Source: Bacillota bacterium (GTDB lineage: Bacteria; Bacillota; Dethiobacteria; DTU022; UBA8154). Taken from it: a stretch of 64,000 nucleotides of DNA. Below are positions 33,742 through 53,070 of the stretch, one piece after another. The number at the start of each line of letters is the position of its first letter. The stretch's first letter is position 1. The position numbers and the translations under genes were made by a program. Location of the stretch: positions 581 to 64,580 of the forward strand of contig JAAZMP010000037.1 of assembly GCA_012798755.1 (NCBI GenBank), read 5' to 3'. The notes below the pieces were generated by a model, which had not been told where the DNA came from, searched no databases, and was given only the letters and a program-made list of their open reading frames with translations.

Positions 33742-35091
33742 TTGAACATAGAAGCTATCTTGGAATGGTTTCACAATGTGGCCATTGTACTTCCTTTAAC
33801 CTTTATTATTTTAGTTGTCGGTGTATTCCTAACTTCTAAATTGCGATTGCTGCAGCTTAAACAATTCGCCTATATTCTTTATCACACTTTGGGCAGTCTG
33901 CTGCGAAGAGAGAAAATAACTAAACCTTCCAGCGGCGAAATCACTCCTTTCCAGGCTTTAACAACAGCTCTGGCTGCTACTGTGGGAACGGGAAATATTG
34001 CCGGCGTGGCGACTGCTATCACCCTAGGAGGGCCGGGGGCAGTTTTCTGGATGTGGGTTTCCGCTTTTTTTGGTATGGCTACCAAATACAGCGAAATAGT
34101 TCTTGCCGTGCACTATCGCACCAAAGTGGAGGGTAGTGTCGTTGGAGGACCGATGTATTTCCTGCAAAAAGGACTGCGCATGCCCTTTTTAGCCTCCCTT
34201 TTCGCTCTTTTTGGTGCATTGGCCGCCTTTGGTATTGGGAACATGGTGCAGGCTAATTCCGTGGCCGATGCTGTCAAAACAACCTTCGGGTTTCCCGTTC
34301 ACCTTACAGGTTTGTTCATGGCTCTGTTTGGGGCTCTAATCATTTTGGGAGGCATTAAACGCATTGCCCGGGTGACTACCTCTGTTGTGCCGTTTATGGC
34401 ATTTTTTTATGTAATCGGAGGTCTTATTATTCTGGTCTTTTTTTACCGCCAAATTCCCCTTGCTTTGGGTCAGATTTTAAGCGGGGCTTTTGGAATCCAG
34501 GCAGCGGCAGGCGGTTTTGCCGGTGCCTCGCTCACCCGCGCTTGGCGGTTTGGTATTTCCCGGGGAATATTTACAAATGAAGCCGGGTTGGGAAGTGCGT
34601 CTATTGCTCACGCCGTGGCAAGGACCCCCCATCCCGTCAGGCAGGGTTTTTGGGGAGTGATAGAGGTTTTTATTGACACCCATGTCATTTGCACCATGAC
34701 AGCTTTAATTTTATTAGTAACGGGTGCCTGGCAGACAGGTGTTGACGGTGCTTCCATGACGGTGGAGGCCTTTAGTCGCGGACTTCCAGGAACAGGGCAG
34801 TATATAGTGGCCATTGGTTTGATTTTTTTTGCGTTTTCTACGATCTTAAGCTGGGCTTATTATGGAGAGAAATGCGCAGAGTACCTTTTGGGCAGACGGT
34901 CTGTACATTTTTACCGTTCCCTCTGGGTAGTTTTTATTTTTATTGGTTCTCTGGGCGGCCTGCGAACTCTGTGGTCACTCTCTGACGTTCTAAACGGGCT
35001 GATGGCTTTTCCCAATCTTGTAGGCCTTCTGGGTTTGAGTAATGTAATCGCCACGCTTACCCGGGAATATTTTGCCGGCGGCCTGAAATAG
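33742..35091 (+). CDS. Alanine/glycine:cation symporter (AGCS family)
   Basis: TPFQALTTALAATVGTGNIAGVATAI, the AGCS signature. TTG start. Confidence 0.85.
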   Translation: MNIEAILEWFHNVAIVLPLTFIILVVGVFLTSKLRLLQLKQFAYILYHTLGSLLRREKITKPSSGEITPFQALTTALAATVGTGNIAGVATAITLGGPGAVFWMWVSAFFGMATKYSEIVLAVHYRTKVEGSVVGGPMYFLQKGLRMPFLASLFALFGALAAFGIGNMVQANSVADAVKTTFGFPVHLTGLFMALFGALIILGGIKRIARVTTSVVPFMAFFYVIGGLIILVFFYRQIPLALGQILSGAFGIQAAAGGFAGASLTRAWRFGISRGIFTNEAGLGSASIAHAVARTPHPVRQGFWGVIEVFIDTHVICTMTALILLVTGAWQTGVDGASMTVEAFSRGLPGTGQYIVAIGLIFFAFSTILSWAYYGEKCAEYLLGRRSVHFYRSLWVVFIFIGSLGGLRTLWSLSDVLNGLMAFPNLVGLLGLSNVIATLTREYFAGGLK

Positions 35092-38432: not shown

Positions 38433-38503
38433 ATGCCGAAATTAAATGGTTTAAGGTCTAGCGGCAAATAAGTTATGAAAATTGTATAAACGGAGGATGG
38501 AAT

Positions 38504-40336: not shown

Positions 40337-40414
40337 AATTTTTGAAGATGCGCTTTTAGACCATGAAGGCGCTTTTATTGAGGCCCAATTTCAATTAATT
40401 CCAAGGGTGATGGT

Positions 40415-41293
40415 ATGAATTCAAGGCAAAAAGTATTGGCAACTCTGCAGGGCTCAGTGCTCGATCCTCCGGCCAAAGGGGAAATCTGGGTTTTTCCTAG
40501 GGTGCTGGAAAGCCAGGGGTTTCCAAATAACTATATGGGATTGTGCAAATTTGCTCTAAAAATTGGTTTTGATTTTTGCTTTTTCAGCTGCGGAGGGCCT
40601 CAACCCCTGGCATGCGAAAAAAATATTTTAGAAAATGCAGTTAAACTGGCTAAAACAGAAAATCTGGCCTGCGGCGCTGTAGTAGATGGACCCTGGCAAA
40701 GGAAGGTACAAAAGGAAGGTCTTTGGCCTTCTTTAAAGGAAATATCATTGGATCCTTCAACTTTTGAAAAAAAGATTAATGCCGAAGCAATCTTTGTGGA
40801 GAAGGAACTATCAGCTTGGATAGAGGCAGGTGCCGATCTTATACTGTTAACCGACGACCTTGCCTATACCAAGGGCCCCTATTTTTCTCCCCAACTTTTT
40901 CAGCAAGTACTGCTACCGTTGTATAAGGGTTTTTTGCAATCATCCGCACAGGGTAAAGTTCCCCTTGGCTTTCATGCGGATGGAGATGTCAGCTTAATCA
41001 TGCCTTTTCTTGTTAGCAGTGGTTTTAAGTTTTTTTCTTTGGAGCCAGAGGCAATCGATCTATTGGATGTATGGCAAAAATATGGCAAAAAGACAACGAT
41101 TGTTTCCGGTATTTATGCTGCCTGGCTTACCGACAGCCGCCTGGTTGTCAAAGAACCCCGCCGCCAAGAAAAGTTGGCCGATCATATTAATAAAGGCAGC
41201 CTTATTCTGGCCTCCGCCTGCGGTTTGTATGAACCTTCCTCTGTGGAACTGTTAAGCAGGCTCTATACTCTTTCTTGTAATGTTTCCTCATAA
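40415..41293 (+). CDS. URO-D/MtaA-family corrinoid methyltransferase-like protein (short, 292 aa)
   Basis: The C-terminal half follows the URO-D TIM-barrel pattern (DDLAYTKGPYFSPQLFQQVLLPLYKGF...GFHADGDVS...). Confidence 0.6.
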   Translation: MNSRQKVLATLQGSVLDPPAKGEIWVFPRVLESQGFPNNYMGLCKFALKIGFDFCFFSCGGPQPLACEKNILENAVKLAKTENLACGAVVDGPWQRKVQKEGLWPSLKEISLDPSTFEKKINAEAIFVEKELSAWIEAGADLILLTDDLAYTKGPYFSPQLFQQVLLPLYKGFLQSSAQGKVPLGFHADGDVSLIMPFLVSSGFKFFSLEPEAIDLLDVWQKYGKKTTIVSGIYAAWLTDSRLVVKEPRRQEKLADHINKGSLILASACGLYEPSSVELLSRLYTLSCNVSS

Positions 41294-41456
41294 ACACTGC
41301 TTTGCTGTTTTCAGCTGATTTGTCAACACCAAGAAATGCCGGTTCACACTGGAGTTCCTGGTGTTTTTATTTTGAGGTTGACTTTTATAAAAGGAGGATA
41401 TAGAATATAATTAGTTTAGATGTATATACATCTGTTTGTAAGGTGGCAAATTAACA

Positions 41457-42248
41457 ATGGCAGATTTAGAAAAAGATTTAAAAAAAATAAGTAAGTCCTC
41501 TGTTATCCCCGTTTATTATCAACTGGCCAGGATTTTAGAAAAAAGAATTCGTTTAGGTAAACTAAAACCCGGCGAATCTTTACCATCGGAAAATAAAATT
41601 GCATCGATTTGCGGTATCAGCAGAATGACCGTCAGAAGGGCTATTGCGGAGCTGGTTGATTTAAGGCTGCTTTCTCCGCAAAAAGGAAAGGGTACTTTTG
41701 TTACTGAGCATGAATTTGCTCATACAGTATTTGAATTCTACGATTTTTTTAAAGAGATGCGCAGAAAAGGAAAAGAACCCAGCTCCAAACTGGTTAATGT
41801 TAGAATAATTAAAGCTGATAAGACGATAGCAAAAAAACTTGATATCCCTATTGATACAAAAACATTATCTATTAAATTAATTCTTGCTGCAGATGGCTAC
41901 CCCATGGTTTATGAAGAAAAATACATCGTTTACACCAAACAAAATCCCATAATTGAATCTGAATTAAGGGATCCCTCCCTACCCAGTCTTGTTTCTTCAC
42001 ATTTACATAAGTTGCCGGTAACCAGTCGCAGAATTCTACAGGTTACCATCATCAATGAAGAAGAAGCTATTTTATTGAACACTAAACCTCATTCACCTGC
42101 ATTTCTGGTGGAGCAAATTTTATATGACAAGGATAACACACCAATTGGCTGGGGCAAATCAATTTATCGCGGGGATAGTTATAAACTTGTAAGCTATGAC
42201 GGACTAAATCCCGGCCGGGAAAAAGGGGGCATTATAGATTATGAGTGA
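41457..42248 (+). CDS. GntR/HutC-family transcriptional regulator (wHTH + UTRA)
   Basis: SENKIASICGISRMTVRRAIAELV is the GntR HTH; the C-terminal UTRA-like domain follows. Confidence 0.85.
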   Translation: MADLEKDLKKISKSSVIPVYYQLARILEKRIRLGKLKPGESLPSENKIASICGISRMTVRRAIAELVDLRLLSPQKGKGTFVTEHEFAHTVFEFYDFFKEMRRKGKEPSSKLVNVRIIKADKTIAKKLDIPIDTKTLSIKLILAADGYPMVYEEKYIVYTKQNPIIESELRDPSLPSLVSSHLHKLPVTSRRILQVTIINEEEAILLNTKPHSPAFLVEQILYDKDNTPIGWGKSIYRGDSYKLVSYDGLNPGREKGGIIDYE

Positions 42249-42864
42249 TTTGATCGAAATGATTGTCAACCTTGATGAACAAAAAACAATCAATTGTATA
42301 AAAAAAAGATTAAATAACGGCGAAAGCGCCATGCAAATTTTTGAGGAATGTATGAAAGGTATTGAAAAGGTTGGCCAAAAATATAGTGAGGGATTCTATT
42401 TTTTATCCGATCTGATCATGGCCGGGGAAATTTTTAGGGCCATAACGGAGATACTGGAACCGCTTTTACCGGAGGGTGACAATGCTGTCAGCAATGATCT
42501 TAAGGTAGTGATCGGTACGGTAAAAGGGGATATCCATGATCTTGGCAAAAATCTGATTGCCTATTACTTAAAATCCAAGGGATTTAAAGTATATGACCTG
42601 GGAGTGGATGTCCCTCCGGAAAAGTTTATAAATACTCTTAAGGAGACAGGCGCCTCTATTTTAGGGATATGCACTTTGCTGACCAGTTGTTTTAACAATA
42701 TAAAAAAAATTGTAGGGCTTTTAGACGAAGCGGGATTGAGAAATGATATTACCGTGATAATCGGAGGTTACCCGGTGGATGAAACAGTCAAAAATTATGT
42801 TGGTGCAGATTATTTCAGCAATAATGCAAGGAGCGCTTTTGATTTGTTTAAACATTTAAGCTAA
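42241..42864 (+). CDS. Corrinoid (B12-binding) protein of a methyltransferase system
   Basis: N-terminal cap domain plus DxHxxG (GDIHDLGKN) and Rossmann B12-binding domain. Confidence 0.85.
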   Translation: MSDLIEMIVNLDEQKTINCIKKRLNNGESAMQIFEECMKGIEKVGQKYSEGFYFLSDLIMAGEIFRAITEILEPLLPEGDNAVSNDLKVVIGTVKGDIHDLGKNLIAYYLKSKGFKVYDLGVDVPPEKFINTLKETGASILGICTLLTSCFNNIKKIVGLLDEAGLRNDITVIIGGYPVDETVKNYVGADYFSNNARSAFDLFKHLS

Positions 42865-42925
42865 CCGGTTATTTTTTTTAAAACAACATGTCTATACATC
42901 TGCACCTATAAACAGGAGGTGATCT

Positions 42926-43006
42926 ATGGAAAGTAAAAAATTTGATTTAAGCTGCTTTACTAATCAATTATCAATCAGAAAGGATGAAAAGCATGTACGG
43001 TTTTGA
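42926..43006 (+). CDS. Candidate 26-aa upstream ORF (MESKKFDLSCFTNQLSIRKDEKHVRF) overlapping the transporter start
   Basis: Perfect SD (AGGAGGTGATC) 5 nt before its ATG. Its stop overlaps the first codons of the BenE-like gene. Confidence 0.25.
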   Translation: MESKKFDLSCFTNQLSIRKDEKHVRF

Positions 43007-44213
43007 AAAGGGGCCCGGTTTTAAAAACGGCTTAAACAGTTTGGCCAAGGATCTTAACTCCAACGCCATAACTGCGGGCATTGTTGCTGCTATTTTCGGC
43101 CTGAGTGCAGGGGTGGTCCATATTGGAGCGGGGCAGGCTGCCGGAATGACATCAAGCCAGATCATTGCCTGGGTTGTCAGCCTGTTTATGATAAACGGGT
43201 TAGGGGGAATAATAATACCTCTTTACTACAAGCAGCCCATTTCTGTTGCCAATAGTTTGCCTGGGGCTATATTGTTTGCTTCCCTTATACCTGTTTTTTC
43301 GTTGCAGGAAGTCCTGGGGGCGGCCTTGGTGTCAGGGGTTATAGTTTTACTGCTGGGGATTACAGGAACAATCAAAAAGGTAATGCAGTTTTTGCCGGTG
43401 CCTATCGTTTTAGGGATGACAGGAGGGGTCCTTCTAAAATTCGGTTTAGATATGGTCAGTGCCATCTCTAATGCCGCTCTGCCTGTTTTATTAATGATTG
43501 CAGCTTATTTGCTGGTTAGTAATTATAGTAAAAAGTTCCCCGGAGTACTAGCTGCGATTATTGTGGGCATAGTGGTGATGTTATTTCAGGGTGTGGATAT
43601 GTCGGGCATTGGTGTTGTCGTGGACTACCCCCGTTTTGTGGCACCGGCTTTTTCCTGGGCTTCCATCATTAGTTTTAGTATACCCTTTGCCATAATGGTT
43701 GTGGGTGCAGAAAATGCGCAAGCCATTGGCGTCATGATGGGGCAGGGCTATAAAGTTCCTATAAACGGAATGACAATCGCAAGCGGTATCGGCGGCATTG
43801 TTTCCCCTTTGTTTGGTTTGCATAATACGAATATTGCCGGGCCAATGACCGCAATCTGTGCCTCCGAAGATGCCGGGGAAAAGGACAAAAGATGGGTTAG
43901 CGCCCTTATCGTTGGTATTATATGGGTCATTGCAGCGCCTTTCTATGGTACCGTGGTTGAATTTTTGCAAGTTGTTCCCGGATTCTTTATTTCTGTAATT
44001 GTTGGACTGGCGCTTATTAAAGTGCTGGTAAGTTGTATTGGCAGCTCTATTGGGGCGGCCACTCACACAATTGGTGCTTTATTTGCCTTCTTGATTGGGG
44101 CCTCAGGAGTGGCATTTTTTAACCTGGGATCTCCTTTCTGGGCATTGGTGGGGGGGTTGGTGGTTTCCTTAATCCTGGAAAGAGAACAGTTTGAATTTGC
44201 AGCTGATTCTTAG
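42993..44213 (+). CDS. BenE-family (benzoate-type) membrane transporter
   Basis: KQPISVANSLPGAILFASL parallels the BenE MPISIAWSTPGAALL block; 11-12 TM segments. Confidence 0.6.
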   Translation: MYGFEKGPGFKNGLNSLAKDLNSNAITAGIVAAIFGLSAGVVHIGAGQAAGMTSSQIIAWVVSLFMINGLGGIIIPLYYKQPISVANSLPGAILFASLIPVFSLQEVLGAALVSGVIVLLLGITGTIKKVMQFLPVPIVLGMTGGVLLKFGLDMVSAISNAALPVLLMIAAYLLVSNYSKKFPGVLAAIIVGIVVMLFQGVDMSGIGVVVDYPRFVAPAFSWASIISFSIPFAIMVVGAENAQAIGVMMGQGYKVPINGMTIASGIGGIVSPLFGLHNTNIAGPMTAICASEDAGEKDKRWVSALIVGIIWVIAAPFYGTVVEFLQVVPGFFISVIVGLALIKVLVSCIGSSIGAATHTIGALFAFLIGASGVAFFNLGSPFWALVGGLVVSLILEREQFEFAADS

Positions 44214-44283
44214 AAGCAAAGGATGGATATTGCCGGGTATTTTTTAGAGCATACTGTTATTTCAATACTTGAAAGGAGCATGC

Positions 44284-45666
44284 ATGATGAATCAGGAGGA
44301 AAAGCAAAAACTTTACGAAGAAAGGTTGGCCCGCTATCAGGCAGCCATATCTCTTGAACCGGTCGATCGGATGCCTGTCGGGGCGACAGCTGCAAATTAT
44401 TTTGCAGAAGTATATGCCGGATACAGCAATCAAGAGATCGTATATGACGATGAAAAATGGATCGATGCCCAGGTCCAATTCTACAATGATTTTCCTGAAG
44501 TGGATGTCTTGCGAGCAGGGAAAATATGGGCGCCTTTGTATGATGCCCTGGGATGTAATTTATACAGGATTCCCGGCCGGGATCTGCCGCCGGGCGGTCA
44601 ATTTCAATATGTTGAAATGGAACGTATGAAAACAGACGAATATGACTTATTGATTAACAGTCCGGTCGAATTTTTTATGGAACGTTACCTTCCAAGGACT
44701 TTTAGTGAATTTAAAGAACGTGGGTCAACGCGCAGTTATATAGCATTTTTAAAGGGCGGCCTGGGTTTTATGATGAGAAGTGCCATCAATAAAAAAATCA
44801 GCGAAACCCTGCAAAAAAAATGCGGTATACCTCAGCCTATCTGTGGCGCCTTGTTGACCCCTTTTGATTTTTTGGCCGACGGATTAAGGGGTCTTAAAGG
44901 TATCATGCTTGATCTTTACCGTAAGCCGGATAAAGTGCTTGAGGCTTGCGATTCATTGGTTGATCAAATGGTCAGAGGCGCACTTGCCGGCGCGGATCCA
45001 CAGTGCCGTATCCCTATCTTTCTTCCTCTGCATCGGGGCAACACCCCATTTCTTTCACCAAAACAATTTGAGATATTTTACTGGCCCAGCTTGAAAAAAA
45101 CATTGGAAAAACTGATTGCAGCCGGATATCAGGTTCGTGCTTACCTGGAAGGCGATTGGAGCCACAATTGGCACCATTTCCGTGAACTTCCCAAAGGTTC
45201 TGTGGTGTGTGACATAGACACACAAGGAGATATTTATAAGGCTTGGGAGGATCTTGGCGGGTGGCAGTGCATTGTTGGCGGAATGCCCGATACCACTTTA
45301 ATACTGGGTTCCCCGGAAGATGTTAAGGCAAGGGTCAAGGAATTATGTGAAAACATTGGTAAAGACGGGGGTTTTATGATTACGGGCGGCTGTTCTTTTC
45401 CCTATGATACCAAGCCGGAAAACTTTAGGGCTTACGTAGATGCTGTCCTCGAATACGGTCGTTACAACGACTCCGTAAAAATGGAGGTAAAAACCAGCAC
45501 CCCGTCAACGGAACAGATATTTGATTCTAAACCAGCGGTTATTACCCCCTGGGAAACAAAAGCTGAGGAACTGGGCGATATAATGGGGGATGAGGAGCTA
45601 ATCAAACAATCTTGGGAAATGCTTGAGCACCTGGCTTACAATTGGCTCTGGGCCTGGACCTGGTAA
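44284..45666 (+). CDS. URO-D-like substrate:corrinoid methyltransferase (long form, ~460 aa), candidate MT-I
   Basis: The C-terminal 200 aa match the URO-D/MtaA pattern (FLSPKQFEIFYWPSLKKTLEKL..., GNTPF, ILGSPEDVKARVKEL, GGFMITGGCSFPYDTKPENFRAYVDAVLEYG). Confidence 0.6.
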   Translation: MMNQEEKQKLYEERLARYQAAISLEPVDRMPVGATAANYFAEVYAGYSNQEIVYDDEKWIDAQVQFYNDFPEVDVLRAGKIWAPLYDALGCNLYRIPGRDLPPGGQFQYVEMERMKTDEYDLLINSPVEFFMERYLPRTFSEFKERGSTRSYIAFLKGGLGFMMRSAINKKISETLQKKCGIPQPICGALLTPFDFLADGLRGLKGIMLDLYRKPDKVLEACDSLVDQMVRGALAGADPQCRIPIFLPLHRGNTPFLSPKQFEIFYWPSLKKTLEKLIAAGYQVRAYLEGDWSHNWHHFRELPKGSVVCDIDTQGDIYKAWEDLGGWQCIVGGMPDTTLILGSPEDVKARVKELCENIGKDGGFMITGGCSFPYDTKPENFRAYVDAVLEYGRYNDSVKMEVKTSTPSTEQIFDSKPAVITPWETKAEELGDIMGDEELIKQSWEMLEHLAYNWLWAWTW

Positions 45667-45703
45667 AAGATCTAACAGTATTTAAGAAGGGAGAAAATTA
45701 ACT

Positions 45704-46345
45704 ATGGGCAAATTATCTGAACTGGCGCAAGCTCTTATGGAACTAAATGAATTTAAGTTTTTAGAACTGGTGGATGAGAAGTTAAAGAAAAAAGAAGATC
45801 CTTTAGAAATAATCAAAGAGTGCAATGCCGGAATGGTTGAAGTAGGCAATCTTTTTTCGGAAAACAAGTATTTTATCAGTGAACTAATGTTTTCAGCAGA
45901 GCTGTTCAAAGAAGCGATGAAAAAGTTGGAGCCGTTTCTTGGTAACAGCAAAACAAAGGAGCAATCCGGTGAAATTGTGATCATAGGAACGGTAGAAGGG
46001 GACATCCATGATATTGGTAAAAACATTGCTGCTAACCTCATAGAAGGCAGCGGTTATAGGGTTATCGATTTGGGTGTTGATGTACCTGCAGAAAAGTTTG
46101 TGGAGGAATTGAAGAAAACCGGTGCAAAGGTTTTAGGCTTGAGTGCCATGTTAAACTTTGTATTTCCGGAAATGAAAAATGTCGTAGATTCGATCGCTGA
46201 AGCAGGCTTGAGGGAACAGGTAAAAATTATCATTGGTGGAGCACCGTGTAACGAGCAGGTCAGAAAATTTTGTGGAGCGGACTATTATGCAAAAGATGCT
46301 TCCGCCGGTGTTACAATTTGTCAGGAAATATACAGCAGTGAATAA
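45704..46345 (+). CDS. Corrinoid (B12-binding) protein, second copy
   Basis: GDIHDIGKN DxHxxG motif; paralogous to 42241-42864. Confidence 0.85.
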   Translation: MGKLSELAQALMELNEFKFLELVDEKLKKKEDPLEIIKECNAGMVEVGNLFSENKYFISELMFSAELFKEAMKKLEPFLGNSKTKEQSGEIVIIGTVEGDIHDIGKNIAANLIEGSGYRVIDLGVDVPAEKFVEELKKTGAKVLGLSAMLNFVFPEMKNVVDSIAEAGLREQVKIIIGGAPCNEQVRKFCGADYYAKDASAGVTICQEIYSSE

Positions 46346-46457
46346 GGACTGGTCTAGCGAATAGTGAAGTCGTGGAATGCTTTATATTATTAACTAAAAG
46401 CCAATCATTGTTAACGTGATTGGCTCCTTTCTTACCATAAAACCGGGGGTATGAACT

Positions 46458-47336
46458 ATGGCAGAAACAAAGGTATCCGGGAAAACAAAGGAAATCATTA
46501 TCAGCAGCGAAAAACCTACAGTTTTGATTGGCGAACGTATTAATCCTACGGGAAGGAAAAAACTTTCGGCAGAATTACAAAAGGGTAATCTAGACATAAT
46601 TGAAAAAGAAGCGCTGGAACAAGTTAGCGCCGGTGCCGACATCATAGATGTAAACGTAGGTGCCACAGGGGTGGATGAGGTTGTCCTGTTGCCGGAAGCA
46701 ATAAGCCGCCTTATGGAAAAAATTGACGTGCCTCTTTGTTTGGACAGCAGTAATCCCAAAGCGTTGGCAAAAGCCCTGGAAATTTACCAAGGTAAGGCAC
46801 TAGTGAATTCTGTTAAAGGTGAAGAGAGCTCACTAAAGACTATTTTGCCTTTAATAAAGGAGTATAATGCCGCTGTTATTGCTTTGCCTGTTGATGAAGC
46901 AGGCATACCTTTTACAGTTGAAAAGCGCTTGGAAATTTCCGCTAAAATATTAAATGCAGCAGAGTTGTTAGGTATTTCCAAAGAAAACATTATTATAGAT
47001 TGCCTGGCACTGACACTGGGGACAAACGATCAAGCCGGGAAAATTGTTTTAGCAACCATAGAAAATATAAAAGAAAAATTGGATGTAAACATAACAGTTG
47101 GGGCAAGCAACATTTCATTTGGATTGCCTGATAGGAATCTGATTAACAATGTGTTTTTGGCCGCTGCAATTTCTAAAGGTCTTACCTGCCCGATAGTCGA
47201 TGTTGCCGCGGTTATTCAGTCAGTGCTTGCCATTGATTTGGTGCTCGGCAAAGATAGGTTTGCCTTGCGTTATGTTAAAAATTATCGCCGGAAAAAAGCT
47301 GAAGGCGGAGGGGGCTGCATTAAGAGTTTAACATAA
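46458..47336 (+). CDS. Pterin-binding methyltransferase (methylcorrinoid:tetrahydrofolate methyltransferase, MT-II; MtrH/AcsE-like)
   Basis: DHPS-like pterin-binding barrel blocks (IGERINPTG, IIDVN, LCLDSSNPKALA, VNSV). Confidence 0.8.
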   Translation: MAETKVSGKTKEIIISSEKPTVLIGERINPTGRKKLSAELQKGNLDIIEKEALEQVSAGADIIDVNVGATGVDEVVLLPEAISRLMEKIDVPLCLDSSNPKALAKALEIYQGKALVNSVKGEESSLKTILPLIKEYNAAVIALPVDEAGIPFTVEKRLEISAKILNAAELLGISKENIIIDCLALTLGTNDQAGKIVLATIENIKEKLDVNITVGASNISFGLPDRNLINNVFLAAAISKGLTCPIVDVAAVIQSVLAIDLVLGKDRFALRYVKNYRRKKAEGGGGCIKSLT

Positions 47337-47486
47337 ATGGTGTTTTTTTGCAGGCGCTTTCGGAATATGTTGAATCGGGCAGCCTAACCGGATTTCAAGA
47401 TCGCTTTTCCCGCACTTGTTTTTTTAAATTTGTATACACATTATTTCAATCTCATAAATATAATACCCTAAAAGGGGGTTGTAAAA

Positions 47487-49268
47487 ATGAGTATACAAAA
47501 TGATATAGATGCTGCTTTACCGGGGGGAGTTGTCAATATTGTCCCGGGAACCTACAACGAACAGCTGATTATAGATAAACCGTTAACTTTATCCGGGCCG
47601 GTTCCATCAGCCGGCGAAGCCATTGTTGATGCTGCCGGCCTGTTAGCGGGAGAGCCGACCATTCATATCCTTTCCAGCGATGTGATCGTGGAAAACCTTA
47701 CAGTGCAAAATGGTCCCGGGGAGGGGATTCGGGCCGGAAGCATTGCTTTTCCCGGTTTAACAAATATCACTATCCGAAATAATATCATCAAAGACCATGA
47801 CAATGCCGGTATCTTGACAGTAAATGATGCCTCTATGCTAATTGAGGACAATACTGTTGTTGATAACGGAAAAGCAGTGGGGTTCCAACGGGTAGGTGTT
47901 TTTTTGTATCCCCATGGCGAAACCCAAGTTTTACGGAATATCATAAAGAATAATTATGGGGATGGTATATTTGCCCGGGAAAGTAGCTCCGGGTTGCTAA
48001 TCGAAGAAAATATAATTGAAAATCATAATTTCAGTGGTATTACCTTAGCCTGGGATGAAATAAACGTAACTATACGCAATAACGAAATATCTGCTTGTGG
48101 CCAGGGAATTAATGACGAACAGGGAGGAATCGTAATTATCCAATCCATGGCCGAAATTATTACCGGAAACACTATCCAAAATTGTAACCCTTTTGGCATC
48201 CACTGGGGGTGGACACCATCTTTTGGGCCCGCGCCTGCTCAGATTTTGATTTCCGGAAACACGATTGTTAATTCCGTTCTGGATGGCATATTTCTTTTTT
48301 CACAAGGGCCGGGTGGTTTTATTTCCCCGGATCCCTTTCCTTTAGAACCGGATATTTTGGGTAATCAATTGATGAATAATGGTAGGGTCGGTATTAATGT
48401 AAGCAATTTTTATTACTATTCTCCGGGCAATGCCAACCCCAAAATTCACTTTAACAGCATAACAGGAAATGTCGAATTCGGTGTTTTTAATGGTACCACG
48501 GAGGAAGTTGATGCTACAAATAACTGGTGGGGTAGTTCCAGCGGGCCGTTTCATCCGGCATTAAACCCGCAAGGAACAGGAGATCCCGTGAGCAACAATG
48601 TACTGTTTTCTCCTTGGAAAACCGTTCCTCCTTTGCAAGAAATGGACTGTTTGGTAATGGAAAAAATATTTGATCAGTGTTTCCAGGAAAACATCATAGT
48701 AAGAAGTTTTGCAATCCCTGTAAGCTCCGCCGGGTCCTGCGGGAACATAGATTTAACCCGTGTAGATCGCGTAGAATGTGCAATCATTGCTGCAAAATGC
48801 AAGGTGGCCGATGTCGGCCCTCCTGCAAATAACAATTTGCGCATTGTTACTGTAAGATATGAATTAGACATGCAAATCAGCCTAATTGCGGAAAGGGTTG
48901 GCCCGCCTGAGGTGCTATGTTCTTTTGAAACAACGGTAGAGGATTTCTATAGCCAAGTGCAGCTGTATATTCCCCCTCCGGGTGTTCATTTTGGTCCCGC
49001 GGGAGGTCCGTTTCTTTTTTGTGAAATTGTTAGTTCAAGCTGTTTCTGCAGTCCGGAAACCCTTCTTCCCGGTGAACCGATCACAAATGTCTTTTGTACA
49101 GCTAAAATATGCACGATTGTGGAGGCCACTGCTTTTGTAAAAGTACTTGTTCCGCACCTGGGCATCTGTACTTTCGGGCCTTGTGAGACCGTTCCCCAGC
49201 AAAAGGAAATCGCATGTCCACCGATTGGCGAACTTTTTCCCCCTCAAAATGATCCAAATGATCCCTAA
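47487..49268 (+). CDS. Right-handed parallel beta-helix repeat protein (NosD/pectate-lyase-like) with a Cys-rich C-terminal region; no signal peptide
   Basis: Many ~22-aa PbH1-like repeats (NITIRNNIIKDH, IEDNTVVDN, IRNNEISAC, ISGNTIVNS). The C-terminal 200 aa contain more than 14 Cys. Confidence 0.7.
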   Translation: MSIQNDIDAALPGGVVNIVPGTYNEQLIIDKPLTLSGPVPSAGEAIVDAAGLLAGEPTIHILSSDVIVENLTVQNGPGEGIRAGSIAFPGLTNITIRNNIIKDHDNAGILTVNDASMLIEDNTVVDNGKAVGFQRVGVFLYPHGETQVLRNIIKNNYGDGIFARESSSGLLIEENIIENHNFSGITLAWDEINVTIRNNEISACGQGINDEQGGIVIIQSMAEIITGNTIQNCNPFGIHWGWTPSFGPAPAQILISGNTIVNSVLDGIFLFSQGPGGFISPDPFPLEPDILGNQLMNNGRVGINVSNFYYYSPGNANPKIHFNSITGNVEFGVFNGTTEEVDATNNWWGSSSGPFHPALNPQGTGDPVSNNVLFSPWKTVPPLQEMDCLVMEKIFDQCFQENIIVRSFAIPVSSAGSCGNIDLTRVDRVECAIIAAKCKVADVGPPANNNLRIVTVRYELDMQISLIAERVGPPEVLCSFETTVEDFYSQVQLYIPPPGVHFGPAGGPFLFCEIVSSSCFCSPETLLPGEPITNVFCTAKICTIVEATAFVKVLVPHLGICTFGPCETVPQQKEIACPPIGELFPPQNDPNDP

Positions 49269-50910: not shown

Positions 50911-53070
50911 TTGGAGGATATGCCAATTATTAAGGGGTTAAACGAAGCCCAACTTGAAGCCGTAACCAATACCGAAGGCCCGCTTTTAATTATTGCCGGC
51001 GCCGGTTCGGGAAAAACAAGAGTTCTTACTCATAGAATTGCCTACTTGCTGGAAATAAAAAAGATCCCGCCCTGGCAGGTGCTGGCTATTACCTTTACGA
51101 ATAAGGCTGCCAACGAAATGAAAGAGCGGCTGCAAAATCTTGTTGGCCCTGCGGCAGATGACATGTGGGTCAGTACTTTTCACTCCGCTTGCGTACGTAT
51201 TTTGCGAAGCCACGCGGAAAAAATCGGCTTTAACAGCAATTTTGTCATATACGATATGGCAGATAAAGAAACCTTGATCAAACAATGTTTGCAATTGCAG
51301 GATCTGGATCCCAAACGGTTTTCTCCCAAAGCAATCGGGGCCGCCATCAGCAATGCCAAAAATGAATTAAAAGATGCCCGGAAATTTTCCAAGGAAGCAA
51401 ACAATTATTTTATGGATGTTGTTTCCGGCATTTATACAATGCTTGAAGAAAAAATGGCGGCAAATAACGCTTTTGATTTCGATGATCTTTTAATGAAGAC
51501 GGTGGAGCTGTTTCAATCAGATAAGGAAGTGCTCCGGTTTTATCAAAACAGATTTACCAATATTTTGGTTGACGAATACCAAGATACAAACCATGCCCAG
51601 TATATTTTGGTCAACCTTTTAGCGAAAAAACATCGCCATCTATGTGTGGTGGGCGATCCGGATCAGTCCATATATCGCTGGCGCGGAGCCGATATCAAAA
51701 ATATTTTGAATTTCGAAAGGGATTATCCGGAAGCAAAAGTGATAAAGCTGGAACAAAACTACCGTTCTACCGCCAGTATTTTGCATGCGGCCAATGCAGT
51801 TATTGAATACAATCCCGGGCGAAAGAAAAAGAATCTTTGGACGGACAACCCTTCCGGGGAAAAAGTTTGTTTGATTCATGCCGAAAACGAACGTGATGAG
51901 GCCGCGCGGATCATATCAGAAATTATTACCTTAAAGTCTTCCGGAAATATTCTTTACGGCGATATGGCCGTGTTATACAGAGCGCATGCTCAATCAAGGG
52001 CCTTGGAGGAAGAATTGGTCAGGAATAACATCAGCTATCAGATATTTGGTGGAACCAAATTCTACGACAGAAAAGAGATCAAGGATATTTTGGCTTATCT
52101 TAAAATTCTGGTAAATAAGGATGATGATATAGGTTTTGCACGCATCATCAACGTTCCTAAAAGAGGTATTGGTGCTGTAAGCCAGGCTAGGATTGAAAGT
52201 TTTGCACTGGAAAAGGGAATATCCCTTTATGATGTTTTACCTTATGTTCATGAAGTGCCCGGCCTTACGGGCAGGGCTCTGAAACAGTTACAGCGTTTTA
52301 GGGAACTGCTGGAAAAGTTCCAGGAAGAGCGGCTGGTTTCTTCCGTGACAGAGATAACTTCATCTGTTTTGCATGAGACCGGCTACCTGGATGCTTTGAT
52401 ACGGGATAATACTGTAGAGGCGGAAACAAGACGCGACAATCTAAGGGAATTTTTAAATGTTACCACAAGCTATGATCAAAATAACCCTGCGGGATCACTG
52501 GAAGACTTTTTGGCGGAAATTTCCCTGGTTACAGATATCGACAACTATGTTGATGAGGCGGACAAGTTGGTATTAATGACGCTTCATACGGCAAAAGGCT
52601 TGGAGTTTCCCGTGGTTTTTATTATGGGGATGGAGGAGGGAACCTTTCCCCATTTTCGTTCGTTAGAAAATGAATATGAAATGGAGGAAGAACGCAGGCT
52701 TTGCTATGTTGGCATGACCAGGGCAGAAAAAAAACTGTATCTGTCTTTGGCCGGAAGAAGACTTATTTATGGCATTACACATTCTAAGGTACCTTCGCGT
52801 TTTCTGGATGAAATCCCTAGGGAATACCTTGAATATATGGACCGTAAAAAAGAACCGGCGAAAGTTAATTATTTTACAAGCGGGCCTTTTCCACAGAAGC
52901 CCGTAAATACCTATAGGTTGGGTGACAAAGTATTCCATAAAAAATTTGGCGAAGGGGTAGTTATAGAAACCAAGCCCGATGATACTGAAATTAAGGTAGC
53001 TTTCCCCGGGCAGGGTATTAAAAATTTAGACATTTGTTTTGCCCCACTTAAGGTGTTACCGGAAGAATAA
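50911..53070 (+). CDS. pcrA: ATP-dependent DNA helicase PcrA (UvrD family)
   Basis: Walker A AGAGSGKTRVLTHRIAYL plus helicase motifs I-VI. Confidence 0.9.
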   Translation: MEDMPIIKGLNEAQLEAVTNTEGPLLIIAGAGSGKTRVLTHRIAYLLEIKKIPPWQVLAITFTNKAANEMKERLQNLVGPAADDMWVSTFHSACVRILRSHAEKIGFNSNFVIYDMADKETLIKQCLQLQDLDPKRFSPKAIGAAISNAKNELKDARKFSKEANNYFMDVVSGIYTMLEEKMAANNAFDFDDLLMKTVELFQSDKEVLRFYQNRFTNILVDEYQDTNHAQYILVNLLAKKHRHLCVVGDPDQSIYRWRGADIKNILNFERDYPEAKVIKLEQNYRSTASILHAANAVIEYNPGRKKKNLWTDNPSGEKVCLIHAENERDEAARIISEIITLKSSGNILYGDMAVLYRAHAQSRALEEELVRNNISYQIFGGTKFYDRKEIKDILAYLKILVNKDDDIGFARIINVPKRGIGAVSQARIESFALEKGISLYDVLPYVHEVPGLTGRALKQLQRFRELLEKFQEERLVSSVTEITSSVLHETGYLDALIRDNTVEAETRRDNLREFLNVTTSYDQNNPAGSLEDFLAEISLVTDIDNYVDEADKLVLMTLHTAKGLEFPVVFIMGMEEGTFPHFRSLENEYEMEEERRLCYVGMTRAEKKLYLSLAGRRLIYGITHSKVPSRFLDEIPREYLEYMDRKKEPAKVNYFTSGPFPQKPVNTYRLGDKVFHKKFGEGVVIETKPDDTEIKVAFPGQGIKNLDICFAPLKVLPEE

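Follow-up and report, generated by a model that had tools for sequence, protein, structure and literature searches.

A corrinoid-dependent methyltransferase cluster with a BenE-family importer and a GntR-coupled second corrinoid protein in a Dethiobacteria genome

We analysed a window of 64,000 nucleotides from a Bacillota bacterium of the Dethiobacteria lineage (assembly GCA_012798755.1, contig JAAZMP010000037.1, positions 581 to 64,580 of the forward strand), and all coordinates given here are positions in this window. The DNA was also traced to an uncultured Bacillota metagenome-assembled genome, GCA_040364275.1. A cluster at 40415-47336 consists of seven genes in the order sUROD (encoding a short protein of the uroporphyrinogen decarboxylase (URO-D) fold), gntR (a regulator), CP1 (a corrinoid protein, CP), benE (a permease), MT-I (a substrate:corrinoid methyltransferase), CP2 (a second corrinoid protein) and MT-II (a methyl-corrinoid:tetrahydrofolate methyltransferase). 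We consider it probable that the cluster is inducible and serves the cobalamin-dependent demethylation of a methylated carboxylic acid taken up from outside, with a methoxylated aromatic acid as the most probable substrate, and that sUROD and CP1 do not make up a further catalytic pair. The reading is built on the gene content, the family placement of the proteins, synteny, operator motifs and the co-variation of GntR with CP1. The catalytic core is an additional member of a known pathway type, and the corrinoid protein coupled to the regulator represents a variant not described before. An earlier sequence-only reading had proposed a methoxybenzoate O-demethylase with two pairs of methyltransferase and corrinoid protein sharing one MT-II. 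Its observation is confirmed, as all seven open reading frames are present and co-oriented on the plus strand and the Pfam assignments of all seven proteins match its domain list exactly; its interpretation is supported in part. The arrangement is not due to chance, since the same gene set surrounds MT-I orthologues in many genomes and an operator-like motif occurs four times where 0.76 occurrences are expected.

MT-I (459 residues; 44287..45666, plus strand) is assigned by its Pfam and profile matches and its fold to the CdmB/O-demethylase branch of URO-D-fold substrate:corrinoid methyltransferases. The long URO-D protein had been recognised correctly (Pfam URO-D, 89.5 bits for the open reading frame 44269-45666), but its start had not: the ATG at 44287 is most likely, rather than the TTG at 44269, because a database copy at 100% identity has 459 residues. 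The AlphaFold2 model has a UroD-type barrel (pLDDT 80). The only close solved relative is CdmB (E 2e-41 with the single sequence and 3e-55 as a profile); in the same search of solved structures MtaA was unmatched at E<=10 and UroD was barely detected. CdmB is the chloromethane:corrinoid methyltransferase of Acetobacterium dehalogenans, does not use methoxy-aromatics, and has been grouped with the phenyl-methyl-ether demethylases MtvB, OdmB, VdmB and MtoB within the UroD superfamily (PMC13222342). On the CdmB match and this published clade, we place MT-I in the MtvB/OdmB/VdmB/MtoB/CdmB branch and not in the coenzyme M (CoM)-type MT2 branch.

Among homologues of MT-I that are both solved and characterised, CdmB is thus the nearest, and the CdmBCA system of A. 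dehalogenans (PDB 9rui; PMC13222342) follows the same MT-I/CP/MT-II logic as the cluster described here. The two systems differ in several respects. The identity of MT-I to CdmB is approximately 28% over 314 residues, well below the at least 40% used by the authors for CdmB-like proteins (PMC13222342); the window has a BenE importer and a GntR regulator, and an importer and a regulator are unnecessary for a gas; MT-I continues beyond the end of CdmB; and Cys369 of MT-I aligns with a proline in CdmB, which is zinc-free. The C-terminal extension, which begins where CdmB ends, is approximately 60 residues long, Trp-rich and conserved in the subfamily (45484-45666, residues ~400-459). It carries the sequence ...PWEMLExMAYNWLWxWxW, with a long terminal helix predicted at residues 436-456, and may act as a lid or in docking the CP. 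The invariant or near-invariant acidic and cysteine residues of MT-I are E288, D290, E300, C328, C354 and C369, and the last of these, near-invariant, aligns with C269 of the short URO-D family, itself aligned with a conserved cysteine of MtaA. The spacing E300-x27-C328-x40-C369 resembles what we take to be the zinc motif of OdmB, an unconfirmed lead. MT-I may be zinc-dependent, with E288/D290 or E300/C328 plus C369, which look similar to motifs of MtaA and OdmB, as candidate residues, although these alignments are too weak for a site to be assigned.

The MT-I subfamily is large and tightly conserved, with a length of approximately 455-463 residues and 518 matches among species-representative genomes. 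Members at 57-64% identity are found in Natranaerofaba, Desulfofundulus, Pelotomaculum, Sporomusa, Desulfosporosinus, Desulfomonilaceae, Syntrophobacteraceae, Chloroflexota and Actinomycetota. Named members carry only the generic label "uroporphyrinogen decarboxylase family", no characterised member was found in the literature by locus tag or accession, and the carrier genera, when searched for, do not appear in the supplements of PMC13222342.

CP2 (213 residues; 45704..46345, plus strand) has the Pfam B12-binding_2 and B12-binding domains and, from its synteny, is the likely methyl carrier between MT-I and MT-II; its best PDB match is 4jgi (E 4.5e-46). Both CP2 and CP1 fit the pattern of a small corrinoid protein with cap and Rossmann domains and the DxHxxG / SxL / GG motifs, and the DxHxxG that had been reported for both proteins is indeed there, as D97-I-H99-D-L-G102 in CP1 and D100-I-H102-D-I-G105 in CP2. 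MT-II (292 residues; 46458..47336, plus strand) is a pterin-binding protein (Pfam Pterin_bind, 112.6 bits) that scores 271.6 against the NCBIfam model PRK07535, above the cut-off of 259, and matches PDB 4o0q/4o1e (4o0q, E 6.5e-37) about as well as MetH and MeTr. We take 4jgi and 4o0q/4o1e to be the corrinoid protein and the MT-II of the Desulfitobacterium hafniense O-demethylase. The structures 4o1e/4o1f served as the reference for MT-II bound to methyltetrahydrofolate or tetrahydrofolate in PMC13222342. We annotated the genes neighbouring MT-I in 83 loci orthologous by MT-I, and the succession MT-I, CP, MT-II is kept across them, in Bacillota, Desulfobacterota, Chloroflexota, Actinomycetota and other phyla, with CP2 following MT-I in approximately 60 loci. 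The proposed MT-I/CP/MT-II architecture therefore holds for MT-I, CP2 and MT-II by the CdmB, 4jgi and 4o0q/4o1e matches. As judged from family membership and synteny, these three are a genuine three-component corrinoid methyltransferase, and the predicted path of the methyl group follows from the same evidence. Between CP2 and MT-II there is a hairpin on the plus strand (46399..46425) with a perfect 9-bp stem (AGCCAATCA...TGATTGGCT) and no T-run, which may act in the processing or stabilisation of mRNA.

We compared the cluster with the three-component O-demethylases MtvABC of Moorella thermoacetica, Odm/Vdm of Acetobacterium dehalogenans, Dhaf_4610-4612 of Desulfitobacterium hafniense and the archaeal MtoABCD. 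In common with them it has a URO-D-fold MT-I, a small corrinoid protein of the His-on type and a pterin-binding MT-II, which would give the same flow from substrate to Co(I) to folate. The O-demethylase systems include a RACo-type activase, whereas the cluster in the window has none. Unlike them, it has an MT-I subfamily with a Trp-rich extension, an anion importer in the operon, a second corrinoid protein coupled to GntR and an MtaA-like protein of 292 residues.

The nature of the substrate is suggested by the neighbouring genes. The permease (409 residues from the ATG at 42984, 42984..44213, plus strand; gene callers start it at 42993, giving 406 residues) is assigned to the BenE family by Pfam, with 242 bits against a cut-off of 27, and its TIGR00843 score is 198.1 against a cut-off of 203.4. 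Across the orthologous loci the gene before MT-I usually encodes an importer whose family varies (BenE, MFS, DASS, TRAP and Liv-type ABC) and which is always of an organic-anion type. BenE itself is found in the window and in the two closest MT-I orthologues, the closest being that of Natranaerofaba. The MFS neighbours are closest to the anion:cation-symporter and aromatic-acid:H+-symporter families. Coenzyme A (CoA) ligases recur near the orthologues (PaaK-like in 14 loci, FadD-like in 12), as do IclR regulators (7 loci). The organic-anion importers and the recurrent CoA ligases point to a methylated carboxylic acid as the substrate, with the demethylated product activated to its CoA thioester, and on this gene context a methoxylated aromatic acid is the likely substrate.

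The same pathway could instead serve another compound, such as a methylthio- or methoxy-aliphatic acid, an arylacetate derivative or some other methylated or halogenated carboxylate, in which case the name BenE would mislead; we regard this as possible, though clearly not the favoured assignment. In favour of such a substrate is CdmB, whose chloromethane substrate means that the MT-I branch is not limited to ethers, and the transporter family does change among orthologues. The ligases nearby resemble PaaK or FadD and cannot clearly be called benzoate-CoA ligases, and none of them reaches an equivalog cut-off; the subfamily offers no characterised member and only generic annotations. Against another class of substrate stand the BenE permeases of both closest orthologues, the recurrence of IclR regulators, and the matches of the MFS neighbours to the aromatic-acid:H+ symporter, PcaK and MhpT models, even though the D-galactonate (anion:cation symporter) model is stronger. 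Moreover, Sporomusa, Desulfofundulus thermobenzoicus, Desulfomonile and Desulfosporosinus, which demethylate methoxybenzoates, are among the carriers of MT-I. The Natranaerofaba carboxydovora locus (438-13442 of L004) has two paralogous MT-I genes, of 453 and 463 residues, within 10 kb, one with GntR-CP1, CP2 and MT-II and the other with BenE and RACo, with four operator-like palindromes across both; it looks like a split form of the window cluster.

The regulator (263 residues; 41457..42248, plus strand) has a winged helix-turn-helix (Pfam GntR, 63.5 bits) and a UTRA domain (90.6 bits), and its best NCBIfam matches are of the HutC type. It is preceded by promoter-like sequences, TTGACT-17-TAGAAT and TTTATA-16-TATAAT (41378..41411, plus strand), and just 3' of the -10 box, 24 nucleotides before the gntR ATG, lies the predicted operator O1, a perfect 16-bp palindrome AGATGTATATACATCT with the core GTaTAtAC (41418..41433). 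This core fits GTnTAnAC, reportedly the operator consensus of the HutC subfamily. The longer HutC-type form TGTnTAnACA, TGTNTANACA, has its four occurrences in the 64 kb at 41421, 42845, 42889 and 47431, all of them in the cluster. The second is the operator-like O2a, TGTTTAAACA (42845..42854), within the 3' end of CP1, and the third belongs to the predicted operator O2b, ACATGTCTATACATCT (42886..42901), which lies between CP1 and benE and has two mismatches to O1. The fourth, the operator-like O3, TGTATACACA (47431..47440), lies 95 nucleotides after MT-II and overlaps the -35 element of the promoter-like site of the next gene. In seven further loci, among them those of Natranaerofaba, Desulfosporosinus, Sporomusa and Desulfofundulus, comparable palindromes lie 5' of gntR, MT-I or benE. 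From the motif, its position and its conservation, we suggest that GntR acts as a repressor at O1 and O2. In this it would resemble HutC, NagR, PhnF and TreR, which combine a winged helix-turn-helix with UTRA, GT-n-TA-n-AC palindromes over promoters and autoregulation; unlike these repressors, the GntR described here always shares its transcription unit with a corrinoid protein. The sUROD gene is followed by a terminator-like hairpin and then TTTTATTTT (41346..41364, plus strand), and from the terminators and the motif scan it is predicted to be a transcription unit of its own with no operator motif upstream. The placement of the operators thus makes three units likely: sUROD, without an operator; gntR-CP1, autoregulated; and benE-MT-I-CP2-MT-II, regulated. 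The regulation of corrinoid methyltransferase operons is largely unexplored, according to the authors of the CdmB study (PMC13222342).

Two further elements were noted in this region. An open reading frame of 26 codons at 42926-43006 (MESKKFDLSCFTNQLSIRKDEKHVRF), with a strong Shine-Dalgarno sequence AGGAGGTG, lies just after O2b and overlaps the start of benE out of frame; it may encode a leader peptide or be a chance occurrence. The gene that follows MT-II (47487-49268) encodes a beta-helix/NosD-like protein of 593 residues with a Cys-rich C-terminus and an N-terminus that does not, by eye, look like a signal peptide. It may share the regulon through O3, or O3 may serve DNA looping. A B12 riboswitch or other RNA element was considered and rejected, as there is no Rfam match at E<=0.1 between positions 34000 and 52000.

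CP1 (207 residues, with Pfam B12-binding_2 and B12-binding domains; 42241..42864, plus strand) starts within gntR, overlapping its end by 8 nucleotides. In all 34 orthologous loci that have a GntR gene, a CP gene lies directly 3' of it, typically with a gap of -8 to +75 nucleotides, and in 11 of the 34 the two genes have MT-I on the other strand. The same adjacency is seen in five of five loci with other MT-I subfamilies (390-449 residues, 31-41% identity), those of Formimonas, Geosporobacter, Carboxydothermus, Selenihalanaerobacter and Desulfosporosinus orientis, in which GntR is approximately 50% identical and MT-I and a second CP come next. A neighbour-joining tree places 31 of 32 GntR-linked CPs outside the clade of MT-I-linked CPs. 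Over 26 loci, the distance matrices of GntR and CP1 correlate at r=0.93 (partial 0.90 given MT-I), compared with 0.63 for CP1 and MT-I, 0.59 for CP2 and MT-I, and 0.51 for CP1 and CP2. CP1 and GntR are also the faster pair, with mean distances of 0.57 and 0.61 against 0.40 for CP2 and 0.37 for MT-I. GntR-CP, RACo and sUROD co-occur across the orthologous loci, and the loci conform to a general template of GntR-CP1, a variable MT-I with CP2 and MT-II, RACo-sUROD and a variable importer, from which the window lacks RACo only. These coupling data suggest that CP1 is a partner specific to the regulator. No description of a partnership between GntR and a corrinoid protein was found in the literature; one genome report mentions no more than that GntR and B12-binding genes accompany MttB genes in Eubacterium limosum. 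In Desulfofundulus-type loci (13011-13712 of L005, and also L015, L018, L024, L036 and L038) a conserved protein of approximately 233 residues, with no Pfam or NCBIfam match and no counterpart in the window, is encoded between MT-II and gntR, and in L108 and L109 the equivalent clusters are bordered by DUF1638 proteins, likewise not seen in the window.

Several points weigh against the reading of the cluster as a regulated demethylation pathway with a dedicated regulator partner. The nearest characterised relative of MT-I is as distant as noted above and is not an O-demethylase; the BenE permease falls just under its NCBIfam cut-off in a family whose specificity is known for very few members; the activase is absent from the whole of the window; and operator binding by GntR is predicted only from the reported consensus. 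A GntR-CP pair is missing within 10 kb in 43 of the 83 loci, and two (L039 and L061) show a single CP, which follows GntR. A correlation of 0.93 can come from the co-inheritance of neighbouring genes and needs no physical interaction. Finally, CP1 keeps every cobalamin-binding residue (with C-x-L in place of S-x-L) and has a catalytic corrinoid protein, 4jgi, as its best PDB match, and it could therefore be an ordinary methyl carrier. The single-CP loci, the intact motifs and the inflation of mirror-tree correlations by co-inheritance all favour the alternative that CP1 is an extra, interchangeable methyl carrier, kept for dosage or as a leftover, and that its place beside gntR reflects operon ancestry and has no regulatory meaning. 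We find this rather doubtful. The adjacency outlasts both the inversion of the pair and the exchange of the MT-I subfamily; CP1 changes at the pace of GntR, whereas CP2 is constrained like MT-I; and CP2, although equally adjacent to MT-I, does not approach with it the correlation that CP1 has with GntR.

The remaining alternatives concern sUROD (292 residues; 40415..41293, plus strand), an MtaA/MT2-like short URO-D-fold protein that matches the Pfam URO-D family over the C-terminal half only (42.6 bits). The profile of its family has MtaA as its sole match in the PDB (E 7e-11), and its AlphaFold2 model (pLDDT 93.8) has MtaA (4ay7) at Foldseek rank 1 (TMq 0.76), so that among the MtaA/MtbA MT2 enzymes it finds its nearest relative by both sequence and fold. 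The grouping of URO-D-like proteins with CoM-type methyltransferases, which the sequence-only reading had seen as an argument against O-demethylation, is on these figures true of sUROD and, with MtaA unmatched, untrue of MT-I. A recent duplication of MT-I is ruled out as the origin of sUROD by an identity of 21% over 124 residues and an hhalign probability of 1%. A truncated pseudogene was also rejected, as the family is uniformly 285-300 residues long with 33 invariant columns, the model is of high confidence and there are 65 representative clusters at E<=1e-30. Either sUROD or a more distant relative of approximately 310 residues adjoins RACo in 11 loci. No RACo homologue is present anywhere in the 64 kb, in agreement with the sequence-only reading; RACo is found in 25 of the 83 orthologous loci, and is presumably encoded elsewhere in this genome. 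In being encoded with a CP and, in other genomes, with RACo, sUROD is like the Mlp proteins encoded by bacterial type 1 mlp clusters (PMC10418091); those clusters are without MT-II, whereas sUROD occurs within tetrahydrofolate-linked clusters. Homologues of sUROD at 47% identity lie beside MttB-type clusters with an FCD-type GntR: in L007, L008 and L093 this regulator and a short URO-D protein are divergent from a cluster of MttB, two CPs, a 361-residue URO-D protein and an ABC transporter. The theme of an extra CP, a GntR regulator and a short URO-D protein therefore extends to quaternary-amine-type methyltransferase clusters. A metagenome scan for sUROD contexts gave 16 loci, mostly short, and added one further MttB-type cluster.

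It has been proposed that bacterial MtaA-like clusters act on methyl-sulfur or methyl-selenide compounds (PMC10418091), and sUROD and CP1 might by analogy form a thiol-directed branch, apart from regulation, in which sUROD exchanges methyl groups of CP1 with a thiol or selenol, whether as a sink for them, for S-methyl metabolism or for detoxification. MtaA is, after all, the only solved relative of sUROD, and the invariant H187-x-D189...C269 of sUROD aligns with the H-x-C...C of MtaA, presumably its zinc and thiol-activating ligands. We nevertheless judge such a branch unlikely: the second ligand is Asp and not Cys, the third-position Cys is often Ser in distant RACo-linked relatives, the protein is approximately 50 residues shorter than MT2 enzymes (~340 residues) and scores 40 bits against NCBIfam cut-offs of 244-400, and the constant position of CP1 downstream of gntR would be left unexplained. 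More unlikely still, and the part of the sequence-only reading that did not survive, is that sUROD with CP1 and MT-I with CP2 are parallel substrate-specific pairs, for two methoxybenzoates for example, feeding one MT-II: URO-D-fold proteins and intact corrinoid proteins do number two each against a single MT-II, a CP gene directly follows the short URO-D-like gene in L063, and short URO-D proteins are diverse enough (24-47% identity) to track substrates, but sUROD has no relation to MT-I other than the fold and groups with the CoM-type MT2 MtaA, has its own terminator and no operator, unlike the inducible units, has its 47% homologues in MttB-type clusters under a different regulator and RACo rather than a CP as its usual neighbour, while CP1 follows GntR in 39 of 39 loci, also where the two are encoded divergently from the catabolic genes.

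Under the demethylation reading that we prefer, BenE would import the organic anion, MT-I would move the methyl group of the substrate onto the Co(I) of CP2, and MT-II would hand it from CH3-Co(III)-CP2 to tetrahydrofolate, while a RACo-type activase encoded elsewhere would hold the corrinoid reduced. The HutC-type GntR would repress through TGTnTAnACA both at its own promoter (O1) and before benE (O2), so that gntR-CP1 and benE-MT-I-CP2-MT-II would form two regulated units. We suggest that sUROD is a member of an accessory family that normally accompanies RACo, and that GntR, CP1, sUROD and RACo may make up a regulatory or maintenance sub-system in which, for example, the methylation or cofactor state of CP1 is reported to the repressor. 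In the stand-alone or fused B12-binding transcription cofactors AerR, the antirepressor of CrtJ, and CarH/LitR, the state of the cofactor controls a DNA-binding repressor. CP1 has the same cap and Rossmann B12-binding architecture, so that by analogy these proteins offer a precedent for its action on GntR. The partner here is unlike theirs a HutC-type GntR with UTRA, there is no light-sensing context, CP1 looks like a methyl-carrier corrinoid protein, and the coupling is genomic only. A more specific form of the idea, which we put forward tentatively and hold to be possible at most, is that GntR and CP1, helped by sUROD and RACo, form a corrinoid-based sensor: the repressor would read the cofactor state of CP1, and induction would follow pathway flux rather than ligand binding alone. 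Methyl transfer from the substrate, by way of the cognate MT-I, would establish that state (apo or holo, or Co(I)/Co(II) as against CH3-Co(III)), and sUROD and RACo would reset it. As the GntR-CP1 module is portable, such a sensor would serve many MT-I subfamilies, and the related pair of short URO-D protein and FCD-type GntR in MttB clusters would work alike.

The cluster is set between genes of other functions. Upstream in the window are cdaA, cdaR (YbbR), glmM and glmS, and a terminator-like hairpin with a T-run after glmS (40350..40372, plus strand) marks the upstream boundary of the cluster. The glmM-glmS gap is 71 nucleotides (38433-38503), a search for a glmS ribozyme gave no Rfam match at E<=0.1 in the 34-52 kb region, and glmS here is seemingly co-transcribed with cdaA-cdaR-glmM. 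Downstream, the beta-helix protein is followed by a polysaccharide deacetylase and pcrA (50911-53070). A related cluster of Desulfosporosinus orientis (L110, from 16446 onward), with the order GntR-CP-MT-II-MT-I-CP-MFS-RACo, also adjoins pcrA, and the insertion site may be conserved.

If the relatives of MT-I are seen as substrate:corrinoid methyltransferases tied to anion import and CoA activation, genome readings of methylated-acid turnover would change for anaerobic sulfate reducers, syntrophs and acetogens, with lignin-derived methoxy-aromatics as likely substrates. New pairs of MT-I and CP would be of interest for biocatalytic methylation and demethylation, and the repressor, operator and importer could become an inducible switch or biosensor in anaerobes. 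The strict coupling of gntR to a CP gene, together with the conserved operator, gives a concrete handle on the regulation of corrinoid methyltransferase operons, and it points to a possible new use of corrinoid proteins as regulatory cofactors.

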